Positions 8,435 through 64,000 of a stretch of DNA of 64,000 nt are shown here, in pieces. Origin of the DNA: Candidatus Omnitrophota bacterium. GTDB lineage: Bacteria; Omnitrophota; Gorgyraeia; Duberdicusellales; 4484-171. Under the pieces are notes generated by a model. That model was not told where the DNA came from. It worked only from the letters and a program-made list of their open reading frames with translations, and searched no databases. The DNA lies in the NCBI GenBank assembly GCA_024231025.1, contig JAAEQW010000090.1, positions 21,490 through 85,489 of the forward strand, given 5' to 3'. Each line of letters begins with the position of its first letter. Within the stretch, counting starts at the first letter, position 1. A program made the position numbers and the translations under genes.

Positions 8435-8600
8435 GACAATAGACCATCAATAGACCAAAGACCATAGACAAGAGACCAGAGACAATCGATCTAGTTGTAA
8501 GTTATAGGTTTTAAGTTCGGAAAATTCCGGACCAGAGACCATAGACCGTTGGTCTAGCTATAAGTAGGGGCACAGCGCGCTGTGCCCTTGCGGACAATTT
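8435..8600. repeat. Intergenic repeat cluster: a run of AGACCA(T/A) direct repeats at 8-11 nt spacing plus a perfect 20-bp GC palindrome GGGCACAGCGCGCTGTGCCC
   Basis: Direct reading of tagaccatcaatagaccaaagaccatagacaagagaccagagaca ... ccagagaccatagaccgttggtctag. The palindrome is at 8564-8583. Confidence 0.5.
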
Positions 8601-15600: not shown

Positions 15601-18600
15601 CGAGATCGCTATATTCTAATCGAGGTTGGCTATGAATCAAACCAACACGCAATGCGTCGTAAAAAAATCTTCTACTATCATACTCAATACTATCGCCGGT
15701 TAAACCCAGAATAACCCTCGCTCTTTCCTTGGTGAACTCAACTTTACCGAAAAGACCCCTAAAAAATTCGAAATCACCAGATTTTTCATCCCAACAAGAG
15801 ATCAAAAGAGAAGCAAGTTGAATTTTTTCGAAACTACCATCTTCTGCCCAGCCAATAGCATCAATCAGCCCTCCAAATGAAAACGGCAAAAACGTAAGAA
15901 ATTCATTGCTTAAGATGCTAAACAAGCATTCTCGCGCTTGTGAATTTTGCACTTTACCAATTACTACCGCTAAATTATTAAATAAACTTGGATCTTTTCC
16001 GACTACATGCACTAAATCTTTCGCGATTCGTTTAGCTACCAAATTCTCACTTGAGATGCCTCCTTGAGAAACAATCCCGTCAATTGCTTTAACAATCAAA
16101 CCAGGATTACTAACTAATACCATGCCAATCCCAGCACCAACACGACCCTCTGTCCTTTCTACCACACTAAGTATAGTTTTGAAATCATCCTCATCGGGTC
16201 GCATCTGCTGATTACCAACGAGAGCGTGAGCAAAAACCGCGCTAAGCTCTCTTAAAGTTTCTTCATCTTCTGTGGTTGCTAATTTTGTAATAAAAATATC
16301 CTTGCTTGATTCAGTCAAAGAAACGTTCTCATTATTTTTGAGGAGGTTTTTTAAGACAGTGGCGGCTCTTTTTAAATCCTGCTCGTTATCAGCCCTGTCA
16401 ATTAAGACAAGTAGGTCTTCGGCATGATCTTGGCTGCTAAAACAGTGCCCGCAAACATAAGCGATCGCCGCTTTTGTTGAATCATTCTCTGTCTGGTTGA
16501 ATGATTGCGTCACTTTGTCGTTTAAACCAGAAAAATTAATAGCGTCTTCTTTAATTGCTCCGTAGCTGAAAGTCGCCGCCAAACGCCCATCAGTTTTTTC
16601 AAGCGCGGAAAGAATAGAGTCTACGTCTTCAGGGTCTAACCATTTATCTACTTTTGCTGCCCATGCTATATTAGGTAAAAGAGCCAGGATACTCTCTAAA
16701 TCTTCTTCATTTTCTTGATCACTAAACTCAGAGACAAGAGAGTTAAATTTGTTAAGAACGATTCTAAGACCTGCTTCGCTAATATTTAAATTATCCCTGT
16801 TTTTTTGCTTAATAATTGCCATCAAGATTGAAGATGCTTTAGCTAAAACCTGCTTGTTCTTCGAATCTCTTATTAAATTCAATAAAACTTCAAATTCTTG
16901 AGCATTAAACTTAGAAACAAATGGAAGAGCTATGTCGCGGCCAAGCGCATCATCGAGAACGGAAAGGATTGCTTCGCGCAAAGAATCATCACCAATACTA
17001 GCCAACGCACTGAGGATATCAGAAACTAAAGCTCTTGGCGCGCTACTGTCGCGAAATGCTGAACTAATAATACGCTCAAACCAATCAAAAGTAATCTTAC
17101 CCGATACGCTTAGGGTAATAAGATCAGAAATTAATTTAGAGACCGAATCATCTTTTTTGCCACGCCGTAAAACACTAATAAGAACAGATTCAACAGTACT
17201 TTTTAAATTTTCAAATTGAACATTATTAGTTGCTAAATCAACCATCTCCGCAAGCACATCAGGATTACACTCTAGGGCACCCTTAAACACCCAACCAAGA
17301 TGCTCTTTAGCCCTATCATCTACGGCTCTTTCGCGAGCCTGATATAATATCATTATTTGGTTACAATTAAGCTTAATTGCAGGATCGTCTCTATCTTGTT
17401 TTAAAGCTAGTGCGAGCGAACGCATAGTCGCATCATCATCTGAATTTTCTATCGCGGTCAAGATTCGAGTAGTAAAGCCCGGGTTGTATTTTACCGCCTC
17501 CCCTAAAACAAGCGCGTAGCAAACCTTGATTTCGTTCCTTTCAGGATCATGCGTTGATTGTTCCGATACTGAAAGAGCTAATTCAATTATGCGCGGATTA
17601 TTAGATAATAGCCGTTCTCCAATAGATTTATTCACCCCCCACATGTAATCATCTGAAACACCGACGAATATTCCAGCTAAAAGTGCCAGGTTTTCTGCGG
17701 TTTGTTCTAAATTATCACTAATAATCTCATCTTTAAAAACAAAAAAAGCAGAATTGAAAAAATCTTCAAGCCTCTGCTCATGGATAGATTCCCTTGTGCT
17801 ATTAGTATTCAGCACAACGCTCAACAGTTTATCGAGAATCTCATCTAAATTTTCTCTAGTTTGTTCTATACTATCTTCTACTATGATAATATCCTTTAAG
17901 GACGTAAGAAAATTGCTAAACAAGGGTTGAAGGTAACTTTCCGGCCCAGAAGCTTTTCGCTTAGGACTACTGGATCTTCGTATTTTATTGAGAAAAAATC
18001 TTAGCTCATTGCCGATCTCCTGTAAATTAGTAATCGTTTGTTTAGGGTCATCTTCTACAATAATCACATCTCTTAAGGAGGAAATACCGAGAAGTATGTA
18101 CTTTGCGTCATCGATCCCTGCTTTAGTACATAAATCTATTAATTCCTGTGGTAGCCCTTGTGAGTGTTTAATAATTTCCTGAAAACCAGAAGGAAGCTCG
18201 TCAAACGGTATGTCAGTAAAAGGATAGAGCTTTTGAAAGTATTCCGATTGCACTGAATTTCTCTGAGTCTGATTTTTTTTAATAAATGTAGTTAGGGCTT
18301 TATCGGGCCCGAGTAATTTTGGATACTCATCCGGCATAATTTGTTTGGCTGCTGCTCGCAGTAAATCATGGCCTGACGCTTTCGAAGAGAGCAATTTGTA
18401 ATTTTTAAAAGCACGCAAAAGAGCGTCACCCTCAATAGTCAATCGTGCCACCTCCGAATTTTGATTATTCTTTAAGACTAACTTCCCTTTAAGCCATCCG
18501 CGCTGAGTCAAAAACCTAAAAACTCTGTCTAAGCCAAAACCACACAATAGCTTGGCAATCGCCCCTTTCACTTCTATTTTTATTAATCCTCTCTTTAATA

Positions 18601-32211: not shown

Positions 32212-32619
32212 TTAGCGGCGATTAAGAACTTCTTCTATTTTTTGATGTAACTCCTCGGACCGAAAAGGTTTACGTATATAATCATCACTTGAAGATTTAA
32301 CACTATTTATAATGTCGGGGATACGCATCGCAGTACAAAAAATAACCGGTATATTCTTTGTAGTTTCTTTAGACTTAAGGCGACGATGCACCTCAAAACC
32401 ATCCAAATCAGGCATATTAATATCAAGCAGTATTATATCGGGTTTGCTTTTGGAAACTTTCGTTAAGGCTTCTCTGCCGCCAGAAGCTTCTTCAACTTCA
32501 AAATTTCTCCTGGCCAACATCAACCCCATCAACGACCTTACTTCATTTTCATCGTCAACAATTAAAATTTTGGAAACTTGTTGTTCTACATCCATGTTTT
32601 TCCTTTTATCTAATAGCAA
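32212..32619 (-). CDS. Single-domain response regulator (CheY-like)
   Basis: The ILIVDDE...DINMPDLDG...K receiver motifs. Confidence 0.8.
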   Translation of the reverse strand: MLLDKRKNMDVEQQVSKILIVDDENEVRSLMGLMLARRNFEVEEASGGREALTKVSKSKPDIILLDINMPDLDGFEVHRRLKSKETTKNIPVIFCTAMRIPDIINSVKSSSDDYIRKPFRSEELHQKIEEVLNRR

Positions 32620-38193: not shown

Positions 38194-41100
38194 TTACCGC
38201 TCAACCGGCAAAAGCATCTGGGTGAGTTCGCTTGAGGAGATGTCTTCGATTGAGGTAACGGTGAAGATTAATCCTTCATAGCTAAACGTAGGGGCGCCGC
38301 TTGTCTGCGCCCGCTTCACAAAAACCCCCTCCCCTTCGGTTTGGAGGTTGAAGTTTTTGCGTAGCATGTCGATGCCACCGACACCACCATTATTCTCAGG
38401 AAAAGTAACTTCATAGACATACCCCGAAAAACGTAAACTTCTCCTGCAATCTACATAATGTTGCCTTTCTATTTTAACACCTTCATATTCCGGTTGGCTT
38501 AACAATTCTTTTATCAAACTATCGACCTTTTTAAATTCCGTGCTTAAGCCATAGGTTCCAGCTACAATTTTTCCTCCTGGCTTCACTACCCTTAAAGCCT
38601 CCTCTAGTACCTCCTTAGGGTGGGATACCGGAAACAGATCAGAGAGAACACCAGTTGAGGTCATCACAACATCTTGACTATGATCGGCTAACTCTTTCGA
38701 CTTAGACCTTTCTCCCGCTGAAAATTCACCTAAAATGTGCTTAATCTCTCCTTTCAATTCCTTTCTAAAAAAAGGCTTCTTTAAAAAGATATCAGCAGCA
38801 TCTTTACTCATTAAATGCGCTCGAGGGTCTAAACTGTACGCAATATAATCAATCTCTAAAGTTGATGTAACTACCCCTAAACAACCTAAAGGATAGGTAC
38901 CATCTATCCCAACATCAACAACTGAATCACCACTTTTTAATCCGAGCCCATTTAAAAAACTAACTACCTCCTTCCAATCATCTCCCCCCTTTATGCGCTT
39001 AAATCTTCGGATTGCAAAATCATCTTTGGTTCGTTTTTTAATAATCACACCCTTAGGTTCCTCCTGCCTGGATGAACCGCCCCGGGAATGGATTGCTGCT
39101 GGTGGCTTAAGTGGTCTCTTGCCTTTCTTGGGCTTGCCGTTACCCACACCTGGCGCTTGGAGAAAATCACCCCGCCAAGGTTTGCCTGAAATTCGTCGAC
39201 CAGCATCAGCCGGAGCAGGCAAACCTTCATTTTCAAGTTTCAAGAACTGATCCTTTATCTCCTCGCTCATAACCTTAAGGTATTCAGGCTGATTGAATAT
39301 CCAGTGACTAGCGCCTTCAATTACTATCTTTACGGTCTCTATCTCTTCGCCCTTGCTGTTATGAAATTTCCTATCCTCTATCTGATAGGGAAATCGAAGT
39401 TCACCAGAAATGCTAATAATTCTTCTTAAATGTGGATTGTCTATAATCTTTTTTGCCTTATTCAACATCACCCCTTCTATTGCAACGATAGTTGAAACTG
39501 GATATTTTTCTTGCTCAATCGCCTGAATCCATAAATCAAAACCAGCGCTATAGGCAACAGGAATAAATGGTTTTTCAGATAGTTGTTTAGGTATTTTTTC
39601 AGTTATTTCTCTCACCAGCTGCTTGCGCTTAAAAAGGTATCTATGAATATCTAAGACTCGCCTAATTTCTTTAAATATCGCGTTTTTCGGCCATTTCTCG
39701 CTTCGTTCAAACAGCGAAACACTATACACCTCTTTTGCTTGATTTGCTAATAGCTTGAAAAAACCTTCCATATATTCTGGCAATCCACTCCCCCAATTTT
39801 CCACCCCATTCGAAACCACAAAAGGCGAAGAACTATTGGTTAAAGAAAAACCAGAACCGTCCGTTTTATTGATTTCATAAATATATCCATTAAAATCTAA
39901 CCCTTCTCTATAATTAACATAATTTGGTTCTCCCACCCTAATACCTTCGTATTCCGGTTGGCTTAGTATCCTTTTTATCAATCTCTCAACTCTTTCGAGT
40001 TCAGGTTTCATGCCATAAGTTCCTGCTACAATTTTCCCTCCTGACTTCACTACCCTTAAAGCTTCCCTTAGCGCCTCTTCGGGATTGGAATCCGGTGCCG
40101 GATCAGAAAAAACACCAGTTAGGGTTATCACAACATCTTGACTATGATCGGCTAACTCTTTTGACTTAGACCTTTCTCCCGCTGAAAATTCACCTAAAAC
40201 ATATTTAATTTTTCCTTTCAATTCTTTTCTAACCAAAGGATTCTCTAAGAACATTTCGGCAATATTTTCACTTTTTTCATGCGGTCCACGCTGCAATCCA
40301 TACCCCACATAATTAATTCCTAAGCTTGACACGACTAACCCTAAATAACCCGAGAAATGAACCCCCTCAACCCCAACATTAGTAATTGAATCACCGTTTT
40401 TTACTCCTAACTTATTTAATAATCCAACCGCTTCTTGCCATGCCCTTTCGCTTTTTATATTATTAAATATTCCCAAATCCTCAAGATCCTCTGCAGTCGG
40501 TTTATCCGCAATCGCACCATCAATCTCTTTAATCGGCATAATTATAGTAAATGTTGTGCCGTGGTTTTGGGAATCTTCTTCAATATGGCGGCTTTTGACA
40601 TTGATTGTTGCGCCTAAATCATCGATAAGCTCTTTAACTATTGATAAGCCAATTCCGGTACCAAGATTACCTTTGGTAGTTTTGCCTTCTTGAAAGATCC
40701 AGCCATCTTTTAGTTTATCTTCAAAGATACCAATACCATTATCGGTGATTGAAATGATTACGTTATTATCGGTTTGTTTTACACTTGCGCTAACTTCCCC
40801 CTGATAAGGCTCATCCTTGATTTGCTCACACTCCCTAGTCGCATACGCAGCATTATCAAATAAGTTGCTCCAAATAAAATCAAGCTGGATTGCGTTAGCC
40901 TCCATCTGGACACTGTCATTACGCGACATTTGCCAATCAACCTTTTTGTAAATATTGCGATACCTCTCTAACGCACTATACAGAGATTCCCCGACACCTA
41001 CTATTTTCATTTCGGCAGAGTCGTCAATGGCATCTTTTAGATCTTCTAGAGCATCCAAAGCACCTTGCCCTCTTCGTCTGACCTCCAGTATGGTATCGAT

Positions 41101-44100
41101 CATTTCATCCAACTTTCTATCCAACTTCTTATCATCACTACCAGCTAAGTCACCTTTAATCAATTGAAGAAAATTAATTACTTCTTCTTTCGAATCTATT
41201 ATTTCCTCTAATTGCGTAATTAAATCTACGACTATTGCGTAAACTAAAGATGGGAAATCTAACCTCACAGTTAAGTTGAATATGGCAAAGGTAGAGGCAT
41301 CGACGATGTTTCTGAGATTTGTTTTTAATCTTTCACTTTTTCTCGATAATTTTTCCCCTAATTCAATCCTTTTATCATCTTTATTTTCGCTTTCCCTTAA
41401 CTTTTCCAATACCGAATCAATAAGTCCAAAATCAAAAACACTAGGCATTATTCCATGTGAGTACGATTTTAGACCGATTTTATCAATTAACGCCTTAATC
41501 GTTGTCGGTGGATTAGGATAACCTTTTGATTTTAACTCAAGCCTGCTTAAGATAATCAAATAATCTATGCTATCCTCTGAAGATGTTGTTACAGCTTCTT
41601 CCTGATCGTACATATATTTAAAATAAATTAAGTACTTTTTAAGATAATCTTTCTCCTGCTCATCTAACTTTCGCTCACTTGAAATCTCACGTAATTTTTC
41701 CAGATTAATAATGCGTTCTTTTATAAGATAATAACTTTTTACTCTTTCAAATTGCTCCTTTACATAAACCATATCATCATCGATAGGATGTTTGGGGTAG
41801 AGTTCTTCCATGTAAGTAATTAAATCCTGCAAGCCGCTTTTCTCTTTGTCAGCTTCCCAATCATCCTGATAACCATCGGGAATATTTTCAAAAACATACC
41901 CCATAATCTTTGCTAAACTATAAATGTCCCAAGAAGGATAACGAGGGTAAAACCTTAATCCACTCGGAATAAAACTATCCATCCCTGAGCGCCTAGGCAT
42001 TGCACCAATCGGCGCAACGAATTGAGGATCAATCATTCCAACTCGCCTTTCTTGATTAACGATTATATTGCGCGGATTAACATCACCAACAACAAGCTTT
42101 TGTTTGTGAACGTTTTCGCAAAAGCTGAGAACTTTGGCAAAAACATCAATTTGTTCAACAACAGAAAAACTACCAAAAATCTCTCCCACCTCAAACCAGC
42201 TATCAACAACTTGATAACCTTCTATTTTAATTACCTTTTTTCCAATTTGTTGACCACCAGAGATATTCTCCTCAGTCATCTGAAGATTACCATCTTCATC
42301 AACACCCGCTCCTTCTTTTTTTAACTGTGAAAACCCCGGCATATCGAGTTGATTAAATTTGACCAGAGTTCTTAACTCGCGCATATTCATTTTATTTTCT
42401 AATGCCAGGATGCTTTCGCCTTCTTTCCTATATCCACCACCAGAAACTTTACAAAAAATTGCATCATCATCAGAAAGAGAATAAATAGTAGAATACCCTC
42501 CAACACCTAACACAGACCTACCTAACGTATTGACAATTGCATTGGTAAAGTACGGGCTAAGTAGCGGATCGTTTTTTATTGCATCTAGATAATATTGCCG
42601 AACTTGTGCAGCGCTTGTGTGAACCGGCAATGGTTCATGCTCTGAGAAAGTATACTTTATCGCAGCAGTTTCTTCTTTAGTAAGTTGTGGCGTTTTTAAA
42701 GAAGGGAAATTATCCAAAATGGTCCAAAGCCCTCTCGCACTTATGCTTTTAAAATAATCCGGTAAGTAATACCTGCTATCGTCTTCGCAAACCATTCCTA
42801 CATCTGATAAGATTTGTAGTGAATTATTTACCCCTTTATCATGTCCGATCGCTACCATTTCACGCTCAAACCCTTCAAGCGTTTTAGCCTTATCTTTAAA
42901 GATTTTATTCCTCATCATATACCCTAAAAGAACATCCGGAGTCACTTCCAAAATGGAATCAGAAACCGACCCACCACGGGGATGGTTTGCTGCTGGTGGC
43001 TTAAGTGGTCTTTTGCCTTTTTTGGGCTTGCCGTTGCGCGCACCTGGCGCTTGGGGAGAATCCCCTCGCCGAGGTTTACCTGAAACTCGAGGGCGAGATT
43101 CAAGAGAAATAGAACCGTTCCTATTTTCATCAACTGTTCGGCCAGAAGCAATAATTCTTTTGGCTTTGGTGGCAGAAAACATGCCAGAAGCAACGGCATC
43201 GCTAATATTTTGTGCGACTTTCAAGTTGTTCGGTAAAGAAATAAAATTGCACCCTCCGGAGAAATATTTTCGGTTGATGCGTTTGTGAGTTGTTGGGTCG
43301 CGTTCGGGTTTTATGTAATTGTAGACGCCTTTTTTGTAGGCTTCGACGTAAAGATTATAGATTTTATCTTTGGCGCCTTTGCCTTCTAGGTCAATGCCTT
43401 TTATTTTGCCTTGATCGATGTAATGTTGATAGAAGGTATCTTTGAACTTCTCTTTGAACCATACCGCAAGGATTAGGGAATGATAGATTTGACGCAAGCG
43501 TGCGAAATTCTTCCCGTGATTTACGTCGTGGGATATTTTAGGAAGGATTGTTTCGCGCATCAGGCGAGATGTTATTTCATTTACTTCCGGGGACACGTAC
43601 CGATCCCCGACTACGTCGGGACTTCCGGTACATGTCCCCGTCCGATCCGGTACATGTCCCCGTGCAACATAATCGTCCTCAAGCATTACCTTCATCGTGG
43701 CTTCGGTGATATAGGCGACATCTTTATTTTCATAGACTACGCTTTTATCGGGCGTGATCCAAACCTTGTTAAAGGCGTTGATGGATAAATCAGAGACGCA
43801 AAGTTTTGCGTCTCTACAGTCTTCATAAACCTTTTCCCAATAATCTTTTCCGGTTTCACTCTCTGGATAAGTTAAAGAAGACAAAAGCTGCTTCAGAATA
43901 TAATCCTGACCCAACAGATCCTTTCCTAGATCGGTTAGGCTCAAATCATCTGGAGCAACTCTTGTCTTTTCGTAGGGAGACAAGTTAACCCACAATTCCT
44001 CTTCAGGAAGGGTCAAACCTGCCAAAAAATACCGGATAAGACGGCTTGCTTCCTCTTGGTTAATATCTTCCTGATTAGCGGTGTCAACGATAAATTCAAT

Positions 44101-44445
44101 ATTTAGAGGATTCTCAGGGTCAAAGCGCAACCCTTTCAATACAGAGTAAGAATAATCCTGGGATAACGGAAGTAACTTAGTTGGAGATGGTAAATTATAC
44201 GCATGAGCGTGACTTATCGCGCCCTTGCCCTTAAGGCGCAGCAATCCCGGCAACCTGCCCCGATCGAATAGTCGGGGAATCGCTGCCGCCAATATTGCTA
44301 CCGCCACAAAAACAGCAATTACCCGAAAAGGTACAGACCCCTTCCTTAATGTAATTTTTCGAATCACAATTTGTCTCCCTACAAATAAAAAAGCATGGAT
44401 CTCGCCTCCCCAGGCATAAATCCATGCTTCCCTAATATATACCAT
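38194..44445 (-). CDS. Giant multi-domain protein (2083 aa). It has the N-terminal TM anchor and roughly 400-aa domain shared with giant 1. A basic Pro/Gly/Lys-rich linker is followed by a eukaryotic-like protein kinase domain (VVGDVNPRNIIV, about 41800-42900), a HATPase_c (GHKL) domain (about 40520-40950), a class I SAM-methyltransferase-like domain, an alpha/beta-hydrolase-like domain, a second copy of the linker and methyltransferase-like domain, and the shared C-terminal module.
   Basis: Continuous 6.25-kb ORF. The motifs read are: glycine loop GVGGYSTIY; catalytic D-x-N-P-x-N; N-box LFDNA; G1 DNGIGI; G2 GTGIGLS; methyltransferase motif I VVDVGIDGT and motif III VVKPGGKIV. Confidence 0.85.
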   Translation of the reverse strand: MVYIREAWIYAWGGEIHAFLFVGRQIVIRKITLRKGSVPFRVIAVFVAVAILAAAIPRLFDRGRLPGLLRLKGKGAISHAHAYNLPSPTKLLPLSQDYSYSVLKGLRFDPENPLNIEFIVDTANQEDINQEEASRLIRYFLAGLTLPEEELWVNLSPYEKTRVAPDDLSLTDLGKDLLGQDYILKQLLSSLTYPESETGKDYWEKVYEDCRDAKLCVSDLSINAFNKVWITPDKSVVYENKDVAYITEATMKVMLEDDYVARGHVPDRTGTCTGSPDVVGDRYVSPEVNEITSRLMRETILPKISHDVNHGKNFARLRQIYHSLILAVWFKEKFKDTFYQHYIDQGKIKGIDLEGKGAKDKIYNLYVEAYKKGVYNYIKPERDPTTHKRINRKYFSGGCNFISLPNNLKVAQNISDAVASGMFSATKAKRIIASGRTVDENRNGSISLESRPRVSGKPRRGDSPQAPGARNGKPKKGKRPLKPPAANHPRGGSVSDSILEVTPDVLLGYMMRNKIFKDKAKTLEGFEREMVAIGHDKGVNNSLQILSDVGMVCEDDSRYYLPDYFKSISARGLWTILDNFPSLKTPQLTKEETAAIKYTFSEHEPLPVHTSAAQVRQYYLDAIKNDPLLSPYFTNAIVNTLGRSVLGVGGYSTIYSLSDDDAIFCKVSGGGYRKEGESILALENKMNMRELRTLVKFNQLDMPGFSQLKKEGAGVDEDGNLQMTEENISGGQQIGKKVIKIEGYQVVDSWFEVGEIFGSFSVVEQIDVFAKVLSFCENVHKQKLVVGDVNPRNIIVNQERRVGMIDPQFVAPIGAMPRRSGMDSFIPSGLRFYPRYPSWDIYSLAKIMGYVFENIPDGYQDDWEADKEKSGLQDLITYMEELYPKHPIDDDMVYVKEQFERVKSYYLIKERIINLEKLREISSERKLDEQEKDYLKKYLIYFKYMYDQEEAVTTSSEDSIDYLIILSRLELKSKGYPNPPTTIKALIDKIGLKSYSHGIMPSVFDFGLIDSVLEKLRESENKDDKRIELGEKLSRKSERLKTNLRNIVDASTFAIFNLTVRLDFPSLVYAIVVDLITQLEEIIDSKEEVINFLQLIKGDLAGSDDKKLDRKLDEMIDTILEVRRRGQGALDALEDLKDAIDDSAEMKIVGVGESLYSALERYRNIYKKVDWQMSRNDSVQMEANAIQLDFIWSNLFDNAAYATRECEQIKDEPYQGEVSASVKQTDNNVIISITDNGIGIFEDKLKDGWIFQEGKTTKGNLGTGIGLSIVKELIDDLGATINVKSRHIEEDSQNHGTTFTIIMPIKEIDGAIADKPTAEDLEDLGIFNNIKSERAWQEAVGLLNKLGVKNGDSITNVGVEGVHFSGYLGLVVSSLGINYVGYGLQRGPHEKSENIAEMFLENPLVRKELKGKIKYVLGEFSAGERSKSKELADHSQDVVITLTGVFSDPAPDSNPEEALREALRVVKSGGKIVAGTYGMKPELERVERLIKRILSQPEYEGIRVGEPNYVNYREGLDFNGYIYEINKTDGSGFSLTNSSSPFVVSNGVENWGSGLPEYMEGFFKLLANQAKEVYSVSLFERSEKWPKNAIFKEIRRVLDIHRYLFKRKQLVREITEKIPKQLSEKPFIPVAYSAGFDLWIQAIEQEKYPVSTIVAIEGVMLNKAKKIIDNPHLRRIISISGELRFPYQIEDRKFHNSKGEEIETVKIVIEGASHWIFNQPEYLKVMSEEIKDQFLKLENEGLPAPADAGRRISGKPWRGDFLQAPGVGNGKPKKGKRPLKPPAAIHSRGGSSRQEEPKGVIIKKRTKDDFAIRRFKRIKGGDDWKEVVSFLNGLGLKSGDSVVDVGIDGTYPLGCLGVVTSTLEIDYIAYSLDPRAHLMSKDAADIFLKKPFFRKELKGEIKHILGEFSAGERSKSKELADHSQDVVMTSTGVLSDLFPVSHPKEVLEEALRVVKPGGKIVAGTYGLSTEFKKVDSLIKELLSQPEYEGVKIERQHYVDCRRSLRFSGYVYEVTFPENNGGVGGIDMLRKNFNLQTEGEGVFVKRAQTSGAPTFSYEGLIFTVTSIEDISSSELTQMLLPVER
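43587..43663. repeat. GC-rich palindromic element inserted in-frame in giant gene 2, translated as RGHVPDRTGTCTGSPDVVGDRYVSPE. Its left arm CCGGGGACACGTACCG is identical to the giant-1 element at 19411. Its right arm CCGGTACATGTCCCCG is tandemly duplicated.
   Basis: Direct reading. The identical 16-mer contrasts with the otherwise diverged paralogous flanks. Confidence 0.6.
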
Positions 44446-55788: not shown

Positions 55789-58700
55789 CTATGTTGGTGT
55801 TCGTTCAATGCGAATAATTTGGAAAGTAAATCCTTGAAAAGTCTTAATATCAAAAGGAACAACAAAATCCCCACTGTAGGGGCGGCGCTTGCGTCCGCCG
55901 GCATCCTGCACGCCGACATTTTGCACAGTCACCTCATCTATGTTAAGCATCCCTGCACTAATATCAATACCGCCGGGGGTAGTAGTTACTTCGTTAGACT
56001 CGGCGCCGACAGATTTTTTCCCGGCGGTTATAGCCGGCGCGAATGAAGACAGCTTCCGTTGAGCAATTTTATAAAACATCTCCTCATACTTACCCCACTC
56101 ATCCTTATGAAAATCCTCATACTCCTCGGCAAGAGCTTCTAGCTGCTCAAAGCTCATGCGCTCGATTACCCAAGCATGATACGGGGTAAGTTGGGTTTCG
56201 TTTTCGCTGAAGTATCGCTTCTGACGTTGGGCGGCAACATCATGCTCCTCTTCGTCGATATGTTCCGTCCACTCATGGTCAATTACCTCACCCAGAGCAA
56301 AAAAGGTAAAATTATCTTGGTTGATATAATTGGAATTAACGATTATTGATAAGCTGCCATCTTCTTCTTGCCGACCGCAAGCATCCATGGTTTCAGGCAG
56401 CTGGCTAGATAGATAAACTCTGATCTGGCGGTTTCTAAACTTATCAGCATCTTCCATATCCATTGGAGAAGATCTTAGAAATTCGATTAGTGTTTCTTTA
56501 TCGAAGTTTAATTCTTGCCGAGGATCAACCAACTCTTCAAACTGCCCATCAGAAAGCTTTGGTTCCGACACATCAATAACTCTGCGGCTGGGACGTTTTA
56601 GGGGGCCGGGTTTTGATTTACGGGTGTAGGCGATATGTCCTAGAAGGTTTTTGTAGATGCTTTGAGCGATCACTGAGAAATCTTTTTCTTTTGAACTTAC
56701 CTCAGCGGCCGCATACAAACTGAAGAGATGATTGCGATCGATGCTTACCCCTTTATCAGTTAAAGAGTATCCTTCGTCTAATTTGATCTCCCCTGAATCA
56801 TGAAGAGTGCGAAGAATATCTTGCTGCTCCTTAGTCAATAGTTCGATTAAATTTTCGACTAAGCTTCTATCATAAAACTCAAGCAAACGCTGGCCTTCTT
56901 CTGGAGAAGCTACTTTGACATACGTTTTAATCATCCGCAACAATTCAAAGAGATTACGATTATATCGATTTGTTTCTGGTAGAGCATCATTCTCCAAAAC
57001 AGCTTTGATCACCCTACCCACAAAAGGCTCAAAGAGCTCTCGGGCACCTTCTCTAACCCCTTTCATATCCTTTATTTCGTTAAGAACCACGTCCTTCTCT
57101 CTTTGAGAAAGATTGACCTCAGAAGCAAATTCCTCAAATGCAGTAATATCTCGATCGTACTCAGCGATCACATCCACCAATAAATCAAAGATCTCTTCTC
57201 CAGGACTCTTAGCAATATTGAGCAAGGCACCATCTTTGGAAATTTTTAAATCCAAAGGTAGAGAAAAAATCTTACCTAAATTAAGAGAAATGTTGATATC
57301 TCTTCCTAATTGCTCGCCGATATCAGCTTTATAACGATTGGTGCTAAAAATATAGTGCACTAATGACTTGTTTGCTTCTAATTCACTGACCCCTAAAGTT
57401 TTTAATCCGGCGGCAAAATCTGCATAGAGCGGGTCGCGATCATTCCAATTGCGCGGGAGATTGTCCATGGCAATCGGTATAAGCTTCAAAAAAAGTTTAG
57501 GGTTAAGTTCAGTATACTCGCCCCAATGCATAATCACAAAGGCGGTAAATAATCCTAGCAACTCGGAATCGCGAAGTTGCCTCTCAATCTCCTCAGGGGT
57601 TTGATCCTCTAAGCTGCTAAAAAGACTGGCTAATGCAAAATTGCGCGTTTGATCATCGCCGTAGCGAAATACCTGCGCAAAGACTTCCAAGCGTGCCTGC
57701 CAAGGGATTCTTGAAAACACACCTCTAGTCACTGTATTTATCTTATTGGTGGTTTCTGGGTCCTCAACGATTTTAAGTACAGTTGAAAGTAGCACCGCGT
57801 AGAAACTAAGTTCTTCTTTGCTTGCCTCAAGCTCTTCAAGGACTAAAAACCCTTCAGCTAATATTTCGTCTATCCACTCATTGGCTTTCCTACTCTGGGT
57901 AGCTTCAATAAGAGTAACTACGCTTCGAGCGGCAGAGATAAAACGAGGGATATTGGTTAAGTCGATATAAGTTTCTGTTCGTCGCAATTGCCTAGCCACG
58001 GCCATAGCTTCTTTGTGGCGTTTTCGATAACGCTGATAAAGCTTGTCAATCTTTTTAGCTTCACCTGAATCTGCAACCTGACGGCTATGGAGCTCTTCTA
58101 CCTTCAACGCTTCTATTTGCTTTCGTTCATCTTGCATAAATTCAATAGTTTGCTCTCCGACCTCCCAAAAAGTTTTGTCAGTAATTTGTGCGATATCCTC
58201 ATCATCGAAGATATTAACAAGCACACCAAAAGCGTTGGAGTAATGTTTTTCATCAAAAGGCTTATTCATATCACGAAAATCAAAGACAGAAGTAGTTTTG
58301 GCGATCAAGATATAAAGTTCATTTTTGATCTCCTTGAGAGAATCCTCGTCAATAAAAGGTCTGTAAAAGATCCCCATCGCTTCCATACCTAACGCTCGAT
58401 TCTGACTGAAAAACTCACTCGCCTGTTTCTTAATAATCTTAACTATAAAACCAACGGCATCATCCCGAGCAACAGAATCCATACTTAGAAGAAACTGCCC
58501 TACAAATGTAGGTAACCGTCCTGGCTCAAGGGCAAGAAAGATCGGCTCAAGTTTTTGAAAAAATTCTTTCCGCAATCTTTCATCATCGATAAACGGCATA
58601 TATTGCGTAACTAAGCTACTAATTAAATTCTCGATATCTTGCTGGTTTGGCATCCGACTTTCTTGGGGTTCTTCTTGGTCTTGAGCCCTATCTATTTTTC

Positions 58701-61700
58701 CAATTGCCACCTCGGCTTGATAACGAACCGCTTCGTAGTCATCATTTTTTTTCAATTTACCAAGCATTGGGAGTGCTGCCCAAGCTGCTATGCCAAACTC
58801 TCCTAAAGCCCTAGCACTATTTGCACGAACAAGTTCATCACTATCCTCTAACGCTATAATCAAAGCTGACGTGGCTTTTTTAGCTGCGGGGCCGATATCT
58901 CCAAGAATCTTGGCACTTTTAGCACGCACCACCGGATCAGGATTGTTTAACGTCTCAATTAAACCATCAATCATAGCCTGATCTATACTCACATCTTCTA
59001 AACTATTCTCTATCTTCTCAATTGCCTTCTGGGCTGCGGTGCGAACAAAGTCTTTAGAATCATTCTTTGCTAATTTGCGAAGCTGCACGAGTGCAGGTTC
59101 TGCTGCGGGGCCGATATAACTTAAAGCCCAAGCGCTACCTTCACGAGTATCGTGGTTGCTATCTTCTAATGTACTAATCAATAATAGCATGACCTCATCT
59201 GATACGGAGCCAATTTGCCCCAAAGCCCAACTACTAACCATACGAACCTTTGCTTTTTGATCTGCCAATCTCTCAATCAAATCTGGCACCGCTTTCTTTG
59301 CAGCAAGACCAATCCTCCCAAGAGCAGTCGCACTATCGGAACGAACATTATAATCAACATTCTCTAATCCTCTAATCAATCTATCAATTTCAGCTTCTTC
59401 AACGCTGGCATCCTCTGCTGATCCCTTCTCTATCTTCTCGATTGCCTCTTGGGCTGCGGTGCGAAGTTTTTCGTTGAAACCCTGCTTTGATAAATCGCTA
59501 AGACGCGTAAGTGTAGGTTTTGCGGCGGGGCCGATTTCTCCAAGAGCCCAGGCGCTGTTGTAACTAACGTCATTATTTTTATCGGTCAATGTTCCAATCA
59601 AATCTGACACGGCCTCTTTTGCTGCGGGGCCGATATCTCCAAGAGCCCCGGCGCTGTTTTGACGAACATTCTCATCTTCATCCTTCAAGGCTTCAGCCAA
59701 AGCGGACACTGCCTCTTTTGCTGCGGGGCCAATTTTTCCAAGAGCCCCGGCGCTATTACTACGAACAGACTTATTTTCATCCTTCAAGGCTTCAATCAAA
59801 GCGGACACTGCTTCTTTTGCTGCGGGGCCAATATCTCCAAGAGTCCCGGCGCTATTCCTACGAACAGACTTATTTTCATCCTTCAAGGCTTCAATCAAAG
59901 CGGACACTGCTTCTTTTGCTGCAGGGCCAATATCTCCAAGAGTCCCGGCGCTATTGGCGCGCACCTTGAAATCAGGATCCTTCAATGCCTCAATCAATGC
60001 TGACACAGCAGGTTTTGCTGCGGGGCCGATCTTGCCTAAAACCCTGGCGCTATCCTTACGAACCTTAGGGTCAGGGTCCTTTAGCCCTTTAATCAATCTA
60101 TCAACTTCAGCATCTTCAGTACCTACACTCTCTGACCCCTTCTCTATCTTCCCAATCGCCTCTTGGACTGCGGTGCGAACCTCTTCATCGGGATCATTCT
60201 TTGCTAATTTGCGAAGACGCACAAGTGCCGGTTCTGCTGCGGGGCCGATTTCTCCAAGAGCAGTAGCGCTATTGGCGCGAACAACCCAATCTTTATCCTT
60301 CAAGGCCTCAATTAAAGATGACACAGCAGGTTCTGCGGCGGGGCCGATCTGTCCTAAAGCCCAAGCGCTATTCCAACGAACATACTTATTTCCATCCTTC
60401 AAGGCTTTAGTCAAAGCTGATATGGCCTCTTTTGCGGCGGGGCCGATCGCTGCAAGAGCTCTGGCGCTGTTGACGCGTACCTTGGAATCAGGATCCTTCA
60501 ATACATCAATCAATGCTGACACAGCAGGTTTTGCTGCGGGGCCGATCTTGCCTAAAACCCTGGCGCTATCCTTACGAACCTCAGGGTCAGGGTCCTTTAG
60601 CCCTTTAATCAATCTATCAATTTCAGCATCTTCAACGCCGGCATTCTCTGCTGATCCCTTCTCTATCTTCTCGATTGCCTCCTGGGCTGCGGTGCGAACA
60701 AATTCTTCAGAATCATCCTTTGCTAATTTGCGGAGCTGCGCAAGTGCAGGTTTTGCTGCGGGGCCGATTTCTCCAAGAGCCCAGGCGCTATGGCTGCGAA
60801 CAACCTTATCTTCATCCTTCAATGCTTCAGCCAATGCCAACACGGCCTCTTCTGCTGGGGAGCCAACCCCTCCAAGAGCATCGGCGCTATCGGCACGAAC
60901 CTCAGGATCAGGGTCCTTTAACCCTCTAATCAATCTATCAACTTCAGCATCTGTTGTCGATGTCTTTGCTTTCAAAGTGCCAAAGATCTTTATTGTAATT
61001 TTGCTCTGGCTGATATCGCCTAAGGCTTTTTTGACCTCATCGAGTGGGATTTGGATTTCATTCTGACCAGGGTCAACGGAAGTAACATAGATATAACCTT
61101 CACTAAGCCCCTCGCCTGAAAATTCAATAACAATATATTCTTCTCCAATTCCAAATCCATAATGATTAATAGCATAGCTACCCTCTAACTCGGAGAAATA
61201 CTGGCCATCATGTGTCTCGTAAGTAATCTCTCCTTTTTTCTTGATCTCTGCAATAGTCTCTGGTATTTTTGCTACATCTGTTAGTCCAACTGATCCTGCT
61301 ACCATGGCATGCACTGATCGACCAGAATCATTATAAATGGCGTTGAATATTATCTCAAGATCGGGTTTACCCTTCTCTTTGTGCGCTGCGGCTGATTGGG
61401 GGGATTTTTCTTTTTTAACTACTTTTTGATCACCGAGTTTTTGGGCTGCCATTAAGGCAAGCCTTGCGTAAAGATCCTTAACTTTCTGCTGATCTGGTAC
61501 TGAAGCGGAAGCCAAATCAGCCCTTGTCGGGCTACCAAAGCCATTTACTAAGCTGCCCTTAACGTACTTATCAAAAAACTCTTGTCGTTTCTGGTAACCA
61601 CCAGTATACATAGTGTCGTCTGAAACATTCCCCGTCTGCAAAAAATTAAGATAATCCTTCGTAAACAGACCATAAGAAAGGTCGTTAATATTTAACCATT

Positions 61701-64000
61701 CAAGAATAATATCATTGTCAAAAAAGATGGGAAGTAAGCTATCGTAATACTTACCACTTGACCCCCATTTCTCTTCTGAGGTATCGCCAACCAAAAGACT
61801 AACGATATTAACCGGTGAGTCAATTTGTTGATTGACATAGTTAACTATCGCCTGGTATCGAGGTAAGTCTTTCTTTTTGATCGAGGTAAGTGTCTCATCT
61901 ACATGTCGCAAAATGACGACTAGTTCGGATTCACGCCAAGGTCTAAATAACTCTGAATTAATTTCCACCGAGAATTTGGGTAATTTCAGACAATGACCTT
62001 GCAGACTATGTTTCTGACTGATATACATCCATATTTTTGCGGGATGTGTTTCTGTATCCAAGTTTATGGGGTCTATACTAGTTGATCCTGGGGAAATTTG
62101 TTCTTGATAGCGCTGACTTAAATTACTGGCGGCATTAAAGATGTCATTGAGGACTCGGTAGTCAATTGTTTGGGCATTGTTTTCATAAGAAGTGATTACA
62201 TCGCTTAAGACACCGAGACCCTCGGACAAATCAAGACTAGCTACAACTTGCTCAATCGCCTGAGCCAAAGCAAAATCCTCTATCCCTATGCCTGGATGAA
62301 GAGCAAGCATCTGCTCTACTAGACTATAATCTGGTAAGGGGGCGGCTTTTGCTAAATTACGCAAGGAGTCTTCTAGCTCTTTCTGTTGAGAGAGAAATTC
62401 CTCCTTTGCTTTACCAACGGCGGTCTTTGAATGTTTCTTGAGACGCTCTATCTCTTCGTTCAACTCAAACATTCTTTCCTCTAGAGGTGATCGAGAAACT
62501 TCTTGTTCGGGTGGTTTGATATTTTCTTGTGAATCTTGTTGGCCCATTAATCTTTCATCATCCTGTTCAACATCAGAAGTTAAATCAACCTCTATCCACC
62601 CACCCCCCTTAGGATCCATAACTTCAAAGATCGCATGGCCTTCAGAGCTAAAAAGCTGCTTATTCCCATTTGCGTCCGATACCCCGGTAACTATTCTGGC
62701 GGGGATCCCTAAATAGCGGGCCAATAGCATGCCATACATCGCCAGAACAGAACATTGCGCAGTAATCTTTTCTCTTTGATCGAATGATTCGTCATCGAAG
62801 CCATGATTCAACCACCTGGCTGGGGGCACGCCAAACATCTTACCGGTTTCAATCCCCAACGAATAACGAAACCGATCAGCGATAATTCTAATGACCCCTT
62901 CAAGCCTAGTATTAAAATCTAATCTTCTAAACCTATCCAAGCGCTCTTTTAAAATATCCGGGGGCTGATCATCTTCGGGGAATTGCAAATAGTGTTCGAT
63001 AAGCTCCTCAACAGCCTGGAAGGTTTTGTTGGGCTTGCGATAATCTATCCTGTAAGAGACTCTCTTTGTTTCAGAACTTGATCCATCAAAATGAAGAATA
63101 ATGGTCCCATAACTATCCTGAGAAGAAGTAAACTTGTGGCTAGACTCAATGCTATCGATATCGATAGTGGAATTACTATCTGCCATCAATATCATGGTGT
63201 TGCCTACAACTTCTCTTGCAATCGTATTGGTTCTGCCTGTTTTTTCTCCTTGAGGAAGATCTTCAAAAGGCAATTCTGCCTGACGAAGGCGCCCATTTTC
63301 AACTACTGAATAGACTGCTTCTCGTAAAAAATTCACATTCTCTCTGGAGGTGGCGATAAGTGGCCCTTTCTCCTTTATCTGTCCACCTTCAAAATCGCTA
63401 TCTGGCAATGCCATGCCGCGAGGTTGATAAACCTCTACCACCTCTTCATAAGCACTTACCCCTAAAGCTTGACCACCAGATTTGATAACCTCTGCAAGTT
63501 GCGAAGCTTCAAGATAAGGAAGCCAAAACAAGATATGTCTGGGGGCATCACCACTTAAATAATAAAGTTCTTTAGCTTGTCCAACCGCAGAATCAAAAAT
63601 TGAGAACTCTTGATCACCGTCAATGCTATCTTCCTCTAAATCTCCCGCCAAATTGACCGCTGAACCAGCAAGACTTCCAGCAACGATCGCCATCGCCGAA
63701 TAACCAACCTTGCTCTTACGGAAACGATCAAAACCAGTACCTTTAGGACCTACCGAATCCAAAGAAGATTGGTAACGCTCCAGATTCTCGATGTAATTTT
63801 TAAGAAACTCTCTTCTGCGAAGCAACTTCTGATTTTCCGGATTAAAATCAAGTTCGGATTCGGCTTGCTCTTCTAAGTTACGGTATACTTCTAATCTTGC
63901 TTCGATCAACTTTCTCTGCCGGTCAAATACTTCTTGGCGCTGGGCCTGAATCTTGACAGCCCCTTCTTGATCATCCTCCCAATACTTTAGCGAATCTTCA
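55789..64000 (-). CDS. Giant multi-domain protein (more than 2730 aa; the reading frame stays open to the window edge, so the N-terminus is outside the window). It has a transglutaminase-like Cys protease domain (CSVLAMYGMLLARYLGIPARIV...GHAIFEV...GWIEVDLT, about 62550-62770), a coiled coil, about 25 tandem 31-aa PBS-lyase-type HEAT repeats (about 58540-60960) and a long helical region. It ends in the C-terminal module shared with giants 1 and 2 (GGIDISAGMLNIDE...PFDIKTFQGFTFQIIRIER).
   Basis: Continuous ORF; the listed Met is really a TTG and the upstream codons stay open to position 64000. The Cys-His-Asp transglutaminase triad context was read directly. The HEAT unit is ...LKDxDxxVRxxAAxALGxIGPAAKxAVxAL.... 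Confidence 0.85.
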   Translation of the reverse strand, partial: EDSLKYWEDDQEGAVKIQAQRQEVFDRQRKLIEARLEVYRNLEEQAESELDFNPENQKLLRRREFLKNYIENLERYQSSLDSVGPKGTGFDRFRKSKVGYSAMAIVAGSLAGSAVNLAGDLEEDSIDGDQEFSIFDSAVGQAKELYYLSGDAPRHILFWLPYLEASQLAEVIKSGGQALGVSAYEEVVEVYQPRGMALPDSDFEGGQIKEKGPLIATSRENVNFLREAVYSVVENGRLRQAELPFEDLPQGEKTGRTNTIAREVVGNTMILMADSNSTIDIDSIESSHKFTSSQDSYGTIILHFDGSSSETKRVSYRIDYRKPNKTFQAVEELIEHYLQFPEDDQPPDILKERLDRFRRLDFNTRLEGVIRIIADRFRYSLGIETGKMFGVPPARWLNHGFDDESFDQREKITAQCSVLAMYGMLLARYLGIPARIVTGVSDANGNKQLFSSEGHAIFEVMDPKGGGWIEVDLTSDVEQDDERLMGQQDSQENIKPPEQEVSRSPLEERMFELNEEIERLKKHSKTAVGKAKEEFLSQQKELEDSLRNLAKAAPLPDYSLVEQMLALHPGIGIEDFALAQAIEQVVASLDLSEGLGVLSDVITSYENNAQTIDYRVLNDIFNAASNLSQRYQEQISPGSTSIDPINLDTETHPAKIWMYISQKHSLQGHCLKLPKFSVEINSELFRPWRESELVVILRHVDETLTSIKKKDLPRYQAIVNYVNQQIDSPVNIVSLLVGDTSEEKWGSSGKYYDSLLPIFFDNDIILEWLNINDLSYGLFTKDYLNFLQTGNVSDDTMYTGGYQKRQEFFDKYVKGSLVNGFGSPTRADLASASVPDQQKVKDLYARLALMAAQKLGDQKVVKKEKSPQSAAAHKEKGKPDLEIIFNAIYNDSGRSVHAMVAGSVGLTDVAKIPETIAEIKKKGEITYETHDGQYFSELEGSYAINHYGFGIGEEYIVIEFSGEGLSEGYIYVTSVDPGQNEIQIPLDEVKKALGDISQSKITIKIFGTLKAKTSTTDAEVDRLIRGLKDPDPEVRADSADALGGVGSPAEEAVLALAEALKDEDKVVRSHSAWALGEIGPAAKPALAQLRKLAKDDSEEFVRTAAQEAIEKIEKGSAENAGVEDAEIDRLIKGLKDPDPEVRKDSARVLGKIGPAAKPAVSALIDVLKDPDSKVRVNSARALAAIGPAAKEAISALTKALKDGNKYVRWNSAWALGQIGPAAEPAVSSLIEALKDKDWVVRANSATALGEIGPAAEPALVRLRKLAKNDPDEEVRTAVQEAIGKIEKGSESVGTEDAEVDRLIKGLKDPDPKVRKDSARVLGKIGPAAKPAVSALIEALKDPDFKVRANSAGTLGDIGPAAKEAVSALIEALKDENKSVRRNSAGTLGDIGPAAKEAVSALIEALKDENKSVRSNSAGALGKIGPAAKEAVSALAEALKDEDENVRQNSAGALGDIGPAAKEAVSDLIGTLTDKNNDVSYNSAWALGEIGPAAKPTLTRLSDLSKQGFNEKLRTAAQEAIEKIEKGSAEDASVEEAEIDRLIRGLENVDYNVRSDSATALGRIGLAAKKAVPDLIERLADQKAKVRMVSSWALGQIGSVSDEVMLLLISTLEDSNHDTREGSAWALSYIGPAAEPALVQLRKLAKNDSKDFVRTAAQKAIEKIENSLEDVSIDQAMIDGLIETLNNPDPVVRAKSAKILGDIGPAAKKATSALIIALEDSDELVRANSARALGEFGIAAWAALPMLGKLKKNDDYEAVRYQAEVAIGKIDRAQDQEEPQESRMPNQQDIENLISSLVTQYMPFIDDERLRKEFFQKLEPIFLALEPGRLPTFVGQFLLSMDSVARDDAVGFIVKIIKKQASEFFSQNRALGMEAMGIFYRPFIDEDSLKEIKNELYILIAKTTSVFDFRDMNKPFDEKHYSNAFGVLVNIFDDEDIAQITDKTFWEVGEQTIEFMQDERKQIEALKVEELHSRQVADSGEAKKIDKLYQRYRKRHKEAMAVARQLRRTETYIDLTNIPRFISAARSVVTLIEATQSRKANEWIDEILAEGFLVLEELEASKEELSFYAVLLSTVLKIVEDPETTNKINTVTRGVFSRIPWQARLEVFAQVFRYGDDQTRNFALASLFSSLEDQTPEEIERQLRDSELLGLFTAFVIMHWGEYTELNPKLFLKLIPIAMDNLPRNWNDRDPLYADFAAGLKTLGVSELEANKSLVHYIFSTNRYKADIGEQLGRDINISLNLGKIFSLPLDLKISKDGALLNIAKSPGEEIFDLLVDVIAEYDRDITAFEEFASEVNLSQREKDVVLNEIKDMKGVREGARELFEPFVGRVIKAVLENDALPETNRYNRNLFELLRMIKTYVKVASPEEGQRLLEFYDRSLVENLIELLTKEQQDILRTLHDSGEIKLDEGYSLTDKGVSIDRNHLFSLYAAAEVSSKEKDFSVIAQSIYKNLLGHIAYTRKSKPGPLKRPSRRVIDVSEPKLSDGQFEELVDPRQELNFDKETLIEFLRSSPMDMEDADKFRNRQIRVYLSSQLPETMDACGRQEEDGSLSIIVNSNYINQDNFTFFALGEVIDHEWTEHIDEEEHDVAAQRQKRYFSENETQLTPYHAWVIERMSFEQLEALAEEYEDFHKDEWGKYEEMFYKIAQRKLSSFAPAITAGKKSVGAESNEVTTTPGGIDISAGMLNIDEVTVQNVGVQDAGGRKRRPYSGDFVVPFDIKTFQGFTFQIIRIERTPT
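58540..60960. repeat. Tandem 93-bp coding repeats (the HEAT-repeat array) with several units near-identical at the nucleotide level
   Basis: Recurring strings such as gctgcggggccgatatctccaagag(c/t)cccggcgctatt and ttcatccttcaaggcttcaatcaaagcggacactgc at 93-bp phase. Adjacent units at about 59600-59950 are more than 90% identical. Confidence 0.7.

Follow-up and report, generated by a model that had tools for sequence, protein, structure and literature searches.

Probable in-frame insertions of a REP-type DNA hairpin in two giant genes of a Candidatus Omnitrophota bacterium, and the association of this hairpin with a tyrosine transposase in other genomes

Introduction

Palindromic repeats inserted in frame in protein-coding genes have been described, including the Rickettsia palindromic elements (RPEs) and the repetitive extragenic palindromes (REPs) of the GTAG/CGTC type in Opitutus terrae and Thauera covered by Di Nocera et al. 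(PMC3733652); in that account, the RPEs have no associated transposase gene. Di Nocera et al. also named the TIRYT genes, described the motif GGGGWSAS in the repeats flanking them, and characterised the TIRYT repeat families as moderately abundant and in some cases self-complementary (Di Nocera 2013, PMC3733652). Most TIRYTs were assigned by Quentin et al. to subclass 2.1 of the TnpA-REP proteins (PMC6006769). In the present study, we analysed 64,000 nt of contig JAAEQW010000090.1 of a Candidatus Omnitrophota bacterium (assembly GCA_024231025.1), hereafter the window, which is AT-rich (approximately 38% GC) and holds nearly all of its genes on the minus strand. Two of these genes, giant 1 and giant 2, carry the hairpin elements E1 and E2, respectively. 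E1 and E2 probably arose by independent insertion, in frame, of a REP-type DNA hairpin that is tied elsewhere to a REP-associated tyrosine transposase (RAYT) or TIRYT transposase.

Results

E1 and E2 have the same stem and lie at different positions in paralogous domains

The genes, domains and elements considered here are as follows.
9620 to 20428, minus strand: giant 1, 3602 amino acids (aa).
38194 to 44445, minus strand: giant 2, 2083 aa.
19202 to 20266, minus strand: N-terminal domain of giant 1 (aa 55-409), which hosts E1 and a linker insert and is paralogous to the domain of giant 2.
43243 to 44193, minus strand: N-terminal domain of giant 2 (aa 85-401), which hosts E2 in a hypervariable linker after MLEDDYVA.
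19412 to 19486, minus strand: E1, a hairpin element of 75 nt with arms at 19412-19426 and 19472-19486.
43588 to 43662, minus strand: E2, a composite hairpin element and imperfect palindrome of 75 nt (25 codons, translated RGHVPDRTGTCTGSPDVVGDRYVSP).
43588 to 43640, minus strand: canonical 53-nt unit of E2, comprising the 5' arm, GGAAG, the inner hairpin CCCGAC-GTA-GTCGGG, GATC and the 3' arm.
43648 to 43662, minus strand: extra upstream copy of the sense-strand 5' arm in E2, which is the duplicated right arm, with a spacer at 43641-43647.
19647 to 19733, minus strand: GC-rich insert in the giant-1 linker, separate from E1 and at the position homologous to that of E2.

E1 and E2 are both 75 nt long, in frame and stop-free. 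Each forms a stem of 15 bp containing a single G·T mismatch. At the one position where the arms differ, the plus strand has a C·A mismatch, and the minus (mRNA) strand has a G·U wobble. On the plus strand, E2 reads CCGGGGACACGTACCG (43587-43602), 22 nt, CCGGTACATGTCCCCG (43625-43640), TCCGAT (43641-43646) and CCGGTACATGTCCCCG again (43647-43662). An initial annotation of this DNA had reported this right arm as duplicated around TCCGAT; the duplication is present at 43625-43640 and 43647-43662, the span then given, 43626-43661, being one base short at each end. It had also reported that the left arm is base-identical to 19411-19426 in giant 1, which the sequence bears out, and had missed that the right arm of E2 is likewise identical to giant 1 at 19472-19486. 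In E1, the 45-nt interior contains two small hairpins (19432-19442 and 19451-19467), and the element is translated in frame without stop codons as RGHVPPACRTGREAQAEGRERYVSP. The interiors of E1 and E2 are unrelated.

The first approximately 350 residues of giants 1 and 2 are paralogous (41% aa identity, E 4e-81), and the coding DNA of the two domains shows 51% nucleotide identity over 350 aligned codons, with 35% at third positions. Exact identity between the elements covers 17 nt (CACGGGGACATGTACCG) and 19 nt (CGGTACGTGTCCCCGGAAG) of the sense strand, that is, the arms and 2-5 flanking bases, against a longest word of 14 nt common to the coding DNA of both domains outside the elements. The earlier claim that identity is confined to the element therefore stands, restricted to the arms. 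The divergence of the surrounding paralogous sequence was also rightly described; the insertion points, however, are not at homologous positions of the domain, E1 (after WFKKRLRQT) lying approximately 60 residues beyond the position of E2 (after MLEDDYVA) in the domain alignment. Given the different positions and the unrelated interiors, the two elements are neither products of gene conversion nor copies of each other.

The 15-mer arm, with up to three mismatches, had seven matches in the window against 0.53 expected, and none of 100 shuffled sequences reached seven, excluding chance. GGGGACAYNT occurs in the 64 kb only at the five exact arms. Two arm-like matches (3834-3848 and 32316-32330) had no partner arm and were treated as chance. 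A repeat search with a 9-nt seed misses the element because the mismatch splits the arm. Predicted RNA folds of E1 (−48.1 kcal/mol, z = −3.9) and E2 (−45.7 kcal/mol, z = −4.1), the latter with two 5' arms competing for one 3' arm, were far better than those of shuffled sequences (z = −3.6 to −4.1 across tests), and the antisense strand folded about equally well.

Target-site duplications, which the initial annotation had proposed looking for at the borders, do not abut E1, E2 or two further in-frame copies described below (L214 and L139), as read from the sequences; the sole direct-repeat candidate near E1 is AGACT, 12 and 7 nt away from the element. As to a conserved border motif, all that E1 and E2 share is a C preceding the stem and GGAAG following it, which is a feature of the hairpin family generally.

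The hairpin belongs to a family spread over several phyla

In both sequence and structure, E1 and E2 belong to a hairpin family with a 13-bp stem, GGGGACAYGTACC / GGTACRTGTCCCC, that includes a conserved G·T mismatch. At least 120 metagenome contigs, from many environments and with GC contents of 0.42-0.72, contained the whole element with both arms exact. When named genomes were scanned by the 15-mer arm alone, 44 of 120 loci among the matches listed were true hairpins, and these were found in Caulobacter, Caulobacteraceae and Maricaulis, in Aminicenantes and other Acidobacteriota, in Planctomycetota, and in Syntrophaceae/Smithellaceae (Desulfobacterota); the many single-arm matches in high-GC genomes from this arm-only scan are probably due to chance. 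Of 219 unique elements, 91 had the commonest form, a hairpin of 29 nt in which the loop is 3 nt long. The same pyrimidine/purine asymmetry was present in 181 of the 219 unique perfect-arm hairpins, compared to approximately 108 expected from the arm frequencies, indicating that the mismatch is a conserved feature. The consensus flanks are GAAC before the stem and GTTCT after it, and on the wobble strand the 3' side is rich in T (NTTCTT).

Finding identical arms in otherwise diverged paralogues invites the reading of a recent transfer, and the initial annotation had drawn from them an argument for recent mobility. The 13-bp stem is, however, invariant over at least four other phyla. Because the stem is thus constrained, the identity of the E1 and E2 arms is uninformative on the age of copying. 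The other part of the claim, that the element is independent of its host gene, holds: of 122 aligned homologues, 120 lack residues at the E1 site, only giant 1 and homologue P0120 having any there, and in many other genomes the hairpin is found between genes or within unrelated ones.

Contigs of high GC content carry the hairpins between genes, at times in great density: locus L126 has 18 arms within 3.7 kb. At positions 3284-3462 of this locus, one complete hairpin is followed by a tandem array of five 30-bp units, each consisting of one hairpin arm and its flank (TTTCTTGCAGACCCTCC GGTGCGTGTCCCC), showing that half-hairpins of the family can expand into arrays. BLAST of the consensus element against plasmid and phage collections gave no match, and the hairpin was present in only 3 of 2.9 million viral contigs; no mobile vector was therefore found. 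Rfam 15 gave no match at the gathering threshold in the window and only chance-level matches at E up to 10, and a full-text search of the literature library for the 13-mers found no paper.

Hairpins of the family flank a tyrosine transposase gene in other genomes

At six other loci, including loci of Aminicenantes and of a Caulobacter genome, the hairpins directly flank a Y1/HUH RAYT gene. A motif scan of 164 loci picked by the hairpin alone showed that four of them (L057, L152, L156 and L220, one from a Caulobacter genome) encode mutually homologous Pfam Y1_Tnp proteins with 46-90% identity. At all four, the hairpins lie within approximately 150 nt of the coding sequence, and on both sides of it in three; hairpins flanking the transposase gene correspond to a REPtron layout. 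In the reciprocal test, two loci picked by the protein alone (L251 and L254) have the hairpin ahead of the start codon, at a distance of 17-43 nt. The proteins are short (approximately 200 aa), Y1_Tnp is the only Pfam domain found in them, and their sole NCBIfam match is the REP-associated tyrosine transposase, with a score below the equivalog cut-off. When the neighbouring genes of the hairpins were clustered, they were mostly unrelated housekeeping genes, the transposase emerging only from the motif scan.

A search at E ≤ 1e-10 put 3632 homologues in the transposase subfamily. Aminicenantes provides the top-ranking named ones, and one Omnitrophota and one Elusimicrobia member have approximately 55% identity. 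In the Omnitrophota genome of locus L241, a transposase homologue is flanked by inverted repeats, TTCCGGGGACAC..., which have 12 nt in common with the window arm, in keeping with the motif GGGGWSAS described for TIRYT-flanking repeats (PMC3733652, PMC6006769). Both low-GC L241 (9928-9966 and 10651-10689) and Elusimicrobia-type L252 (flanks of 1501-2154) carry inverted GGGGACACATCACTTAATT copies and no local hairpins. L241 also carries extra GGAATTCC-rich repeats, and its transposase gene adjoins a nucleotidyltransferase/HEPN pair.

E2, with its doubled arm, follows a recurrent family layout

Three-arm clusters like E2 were found 46 times over all loci, alongside 129 simple hairpins and 30 adjacent pairs, and make up approximately one fifth of the family clusters. 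Their extra arm nearly always duplicates the arm beside it, in most cases together with flank and loop, and an upstream copy often breaks off within the first few bases of the opposite arm, after GGTAC or GGTACGTG. As this layout is recurrent in the family, E2 represents a standard variant. The 53-nt core of E2 (43588-43640) belongs to a subfamily of 15 members with the order arm, GGAAG, variable hairpin, GATC and arm, usually then GGAA; several members are in Planctomycetota and Desulfobacterota genomes and others in further contigs. The inner stems of this subfamily covary (CCC/GGG, CTGC/GCAG, CCGC/GCGG and CCCGAC/GTCGGG).

The duplication of 22 nt lengthens E2 from 53 to 75 nt, and the reading frame is kept. 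Because the 53-nt unit would shift the frame and the added 22 nt give 25 codons, the duplication may have served as a frame rescue, though other compensating indels in the linker may also have contributed. We infer that the duplication, whatever its origin, makes E2 tolerable in its 2083-codon gene.

In-frame copies occupy tolerant loops and lie in one codon phase

The N-terminal domain has 1126 database homologues, the named ones mostly from Candidatus Omnitrophota, and had no Pfam match; a Foldseek search against PDB gave no relative (best E 0.14). Many homologues are annotated as partial, for which assembly breaks at such repeats may be a cause. In an AlphaFold2 model of giant 1 residues 41-430 (predicted local distance difference test, pLDDT, 85; predicted template modelling score 0.83), both giant-1 inserts, E1 and the linker insert at the position homologous to that of E2, lie in loops of low-pLDDT coil between confident helices. 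Other genomes contain further insertions. The same hairpin family occurs in the same domain family at a third site (L214 3129-3180) and in frame in a Tgt-like gene (L139 1460-1505), and a variant hairpin, GGGGACATGTTC...GAACGTGTCCCC, lies in the same frame in the domain linker of the Omnitrophota homologue P0038 (L245); all three are on low-GC contigs. In the Omnitrophota genome that encodes P0120 (L244), an unrelated palindrome of approximately 80 nt, AGCGTATAGCG...CGCTATCCGCT, is present at both the linker and the E1-equivalent site, and in two further Omnitrophota homologues (L249 and L250) the linker holds palindromes that are different again. Since unrelated elements occupy the same sites, insertion tolerance is the simplest explanation for the sites.

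All five sense-oriented copies in open reading frames (ORFs), namely E1, E2, L214, L139 and L245, lie between codons in the same phase (CGG GGA CAY GTA CC...) and read RGHVP...RYVSP; one copy, L175, is antisense. The hairpin arms are stop-free in all six frames, yet the sense in-ORF copies all have the same phase. For the six cases, which are not all independent, the probability of this bias under uniform choice is approximately 0.003.

Other repeats and modules in the window

The giant-1 linker insert contains the module CCCGCCTTCCGGACGGGCAGG (19699-19719), which is present in E1 too (19451-19471), and a GTAG-tagged REP hairpin (19647-19672). A 21-nt module, CCCGCCTKCCGGACGGGCAGG, occurs twice on the minus strand in giant 1, nested in E1 at 19451-19471 and in the linker insert at 19699-19719, with zero copies expected by chance. 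It resembles a small hairpin repeat of a third kind, able to sit inside another element. Both this module and the GTAG hairpin of the window were absent from all loci examined. The second repeat family of the window is of the classical GTAG-tagged REP type (GTAGGGGC and a hairpin), with six matches against 0.6 expected. Its copies, each consisting of GTAGGGGC and a hairpin, are as follows.
8564 to 8591, plus strand: GTAG-tagged REP family copy.
19647 to 19672, minus strand: GTAG-tagged REP family copy in the giant-1 linker.
38288 to 38312, plus strand: GTAG-tagged REP family copy.
55876 to 55900, plus strand: GTAG-tagged REP family copy.
One copy is intergenic, the copy in the giant-1 linker encodes VGARRAVP, and two antisense copies are located in giants 2 and 3, where they occupy nearly matching places in the C-terminal modules, immediately ahead of the shared motif F..TF.GFTFQII.

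Giants 1 (9620-20428), 2 (38194-44445) and 3 (55789-63909) have a common C-terminal module, PGGID...FDIKTF.GFTFQII.IER in giants 1 and 3 and a diverged version in giant 2. Their middle parts differ, with HAD/SLOG, with a histidine-kinase ATPase and methyltransferases, and with HEAT repeats and a transglutaminase. The conserved Omnitrophota N-terminal domain (window 19139-20308, minus strand; giant 1 residues 41-430) heads proteins with many different C-terminal domains.

Discussion

Considering these results, we suggest the following course of events for E1 and E2. Elsewhere, the hairpin is a dispersed, mostly intergenic repeat directly flanking a single-copy Y1/HUH gene of the RAYT/TIRYT type. 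By analogy with IS200/IS605 and REP-RAYT systems, the transposase probably recognises the folded hairpin in single-stranded DNA, with the stem mismatch marking the strand for it, and then probably cuts and rejoins DNA without target-site duplications. We infer, from the same analogy, that such a transposase mobilised the element in this genome. In an AT-rich, gene-dense Omnitrophota genome, the surviving copies would be those that are stop-free, have a length that is a multiple of three and lie in tolerant surface loops, and these would hence be read through as approximately 25 extra residues. The doubled arm of E2 would be the common partial tandem duplication of the family, by which a frame-breaking 53-nt unit became one of 75 nt.

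Several points weigh against this course of events. The motif scan revealed no transposase gene in the 64-kb window, and the one Omnitrophota homologue examined (L241) is flanked by a related but different repeat, GGGGACACATCACTTAATT. Only two copies were present in the 64 kb, a count that does not support a high copy number in this genome. E1 and E2 (C, then GGGGACA...) are without the GTAG (or CGTC) tag of classical REPs. Furthermore, both copies, as well as copies in other genomes, are in one domain family, and passive tolerance may not be the full explanation for this clustering.

Some features of the sense strand raise the question of whether the hairpins are kept for a role in mRNA, as sites of ribosome pausing between the domains of giant proteins or as RNase/stability sites, the G·U wobble being a feature of RNA. 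The wobble is on the sense strand in five of the six in-ORF copies, all in the same codon phase; that strand folds with −46 to −48 kcal/mol (z approximately −4); and in other genomes the wobble strand has a T-rich tail after it (NTTCTT). However, no conserved role is visible when the E1 site is empty in 120 of 122 homologues and the linker contents differ in every homologue. With no Rfam match, an antisense strand that folds about as well, and the same mismatch in copies flanking the transposase gene, a role in mRNA appears unlikely. The single frame of the sense in-ORF copies, with its reading RGHVP...RYVSP, could also point to functional peptide modules selected at the protein level, but the peptide is absent from nearly all homologues, is modelled as disordered coil and has unrelated interiors, and it was not seen in relatives kept without the DNA palindrome. 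We consider selection of this kind to have next to no likelihood.

The initial annotation had entertained gene conversion. Such conversion, or ectopic recombination, between the two N-terminal host domains would have copied the element from one giant to the other, as the paralogy of these domains and the identity of the arms with 2-5 flanking bases might suggest. The copies are nevertheless approximately 60 residues apart, their interiors share nothing, the flanks are 51% identical with no conversion tract, and the identical stem in other phyla means that no transfer between the giants is needed to explain the identity, so that this origin is highly improbable. Another source could be miniature inverted-repeat transposable elements (MITEs) or other miniature transposons moved by a DDE transposase, or palindromes arising by slippage, with a link to the tyrosine transposase that is coincidental for this genome. 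The lack of a transposase in the window and the many partial tandem duplications in the family, which are typical of slippage, would agree with such a source. It is very unlikely, however, given that no target-site duplications abut the elements, that the arms are not the termini of a larger element, that a local origin leaves an identical 13-bp stem in five phyla unexplained and that the association with the transposase holds in both directions. An intron, an intein or translational bypass was also considered and dropped, as the element is in frame and stop-free with no sign of removal.

Insertion of a transposase-associated hairpin into the two giants may also be part of a broader pattern, which we put forward tentatively as a doubtful possibility. 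A single pairing of hairpin and transposase, in which the 13-bp stem of the hairpin is invariant and the G·T mismatch fixed, may have been transferred or have persisted over at least five phyla. In AT-rich Omnitrophota it might recurrently build protein loops, entering this N-terminal domain family at several sites, on each occasion between codons and with a single orientation. If so, there would be a bias of insertion that is codon-phased or coupled to transcription, or strong selection on the encoded peptide. The present results link the hairpin to a RAYT/TIRYT-type transposase in several poorly studied phyla and suggest that REP-type repeats contribute translated loop sequence to giant genes of Omnitrophota. 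The stem maintained across phyla provides a test case for the recognition of hairpins by transposases and for whether REP systems are always vertically inherited.

Among known systems, the REP/REPIN-RAYT systems of E. coli and Pseudomonas (PMC3116915, PMC3479197, PMC5581495) resemble the family in having short, dispersed, imperfect palindromes that often form dimers or clusters, copies that flank a single-copy Y1/HUH gene, a mismatch that gives polarity, and no target-site duplications. The stem of the family is, in contrast, longer (13-15 bp) than REP/REPIN stems, and the same stem occurs across phyla, whereas classical REPs are lineage-specific. REPs are extragenic, as are the intergenic high-GC relatives of the family, whereas E1 and E2 are in frame inside long ORFs, and the proteins associated with the family score below the NCBIfam equivalog cut-off for RAYT. 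With the TIRtrons (PMC3733652, PMC6006769), in a comparison made by motif only, the family shares the start of the plus-strand arm, GGGGACAC, which fits GGGGWSAS as given in these accounts. The transposase homologues of L241 and L252 resemble TIRtrons in their single flanking inverted repeats; the flanks in Aminicenantes and Caulobacter differ in being complete local hairpins rather than arms of a long-range inverted repeat. MITEs and palindrome-associated elements derived from IS200/IS605 are, like the family, small, non-coding and structured, and presumably moved in trans, but the family has no terminal inverted repeats around a longer body, no target-site duplication and no internal sequence derived from an insertion sequence. 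RPEs and intragenic REPs correspond to E1 and E2 in being in frame in intact genes, adding approximately 20-30 residues and sometimes occurring twice per gene. Both appear to differ from them in sequence family, and in the present case the host is Omnitrophota and the targets are giant genes; the relation to the RPEs is one of analogy and not of membership. In-frame intragenic REPs as such are already documented, and the hairpin sequence is previously unlisted; what goes beyond the ordinary is the invariance of its stem across phyla together with the phase bias of its in-frame copies.

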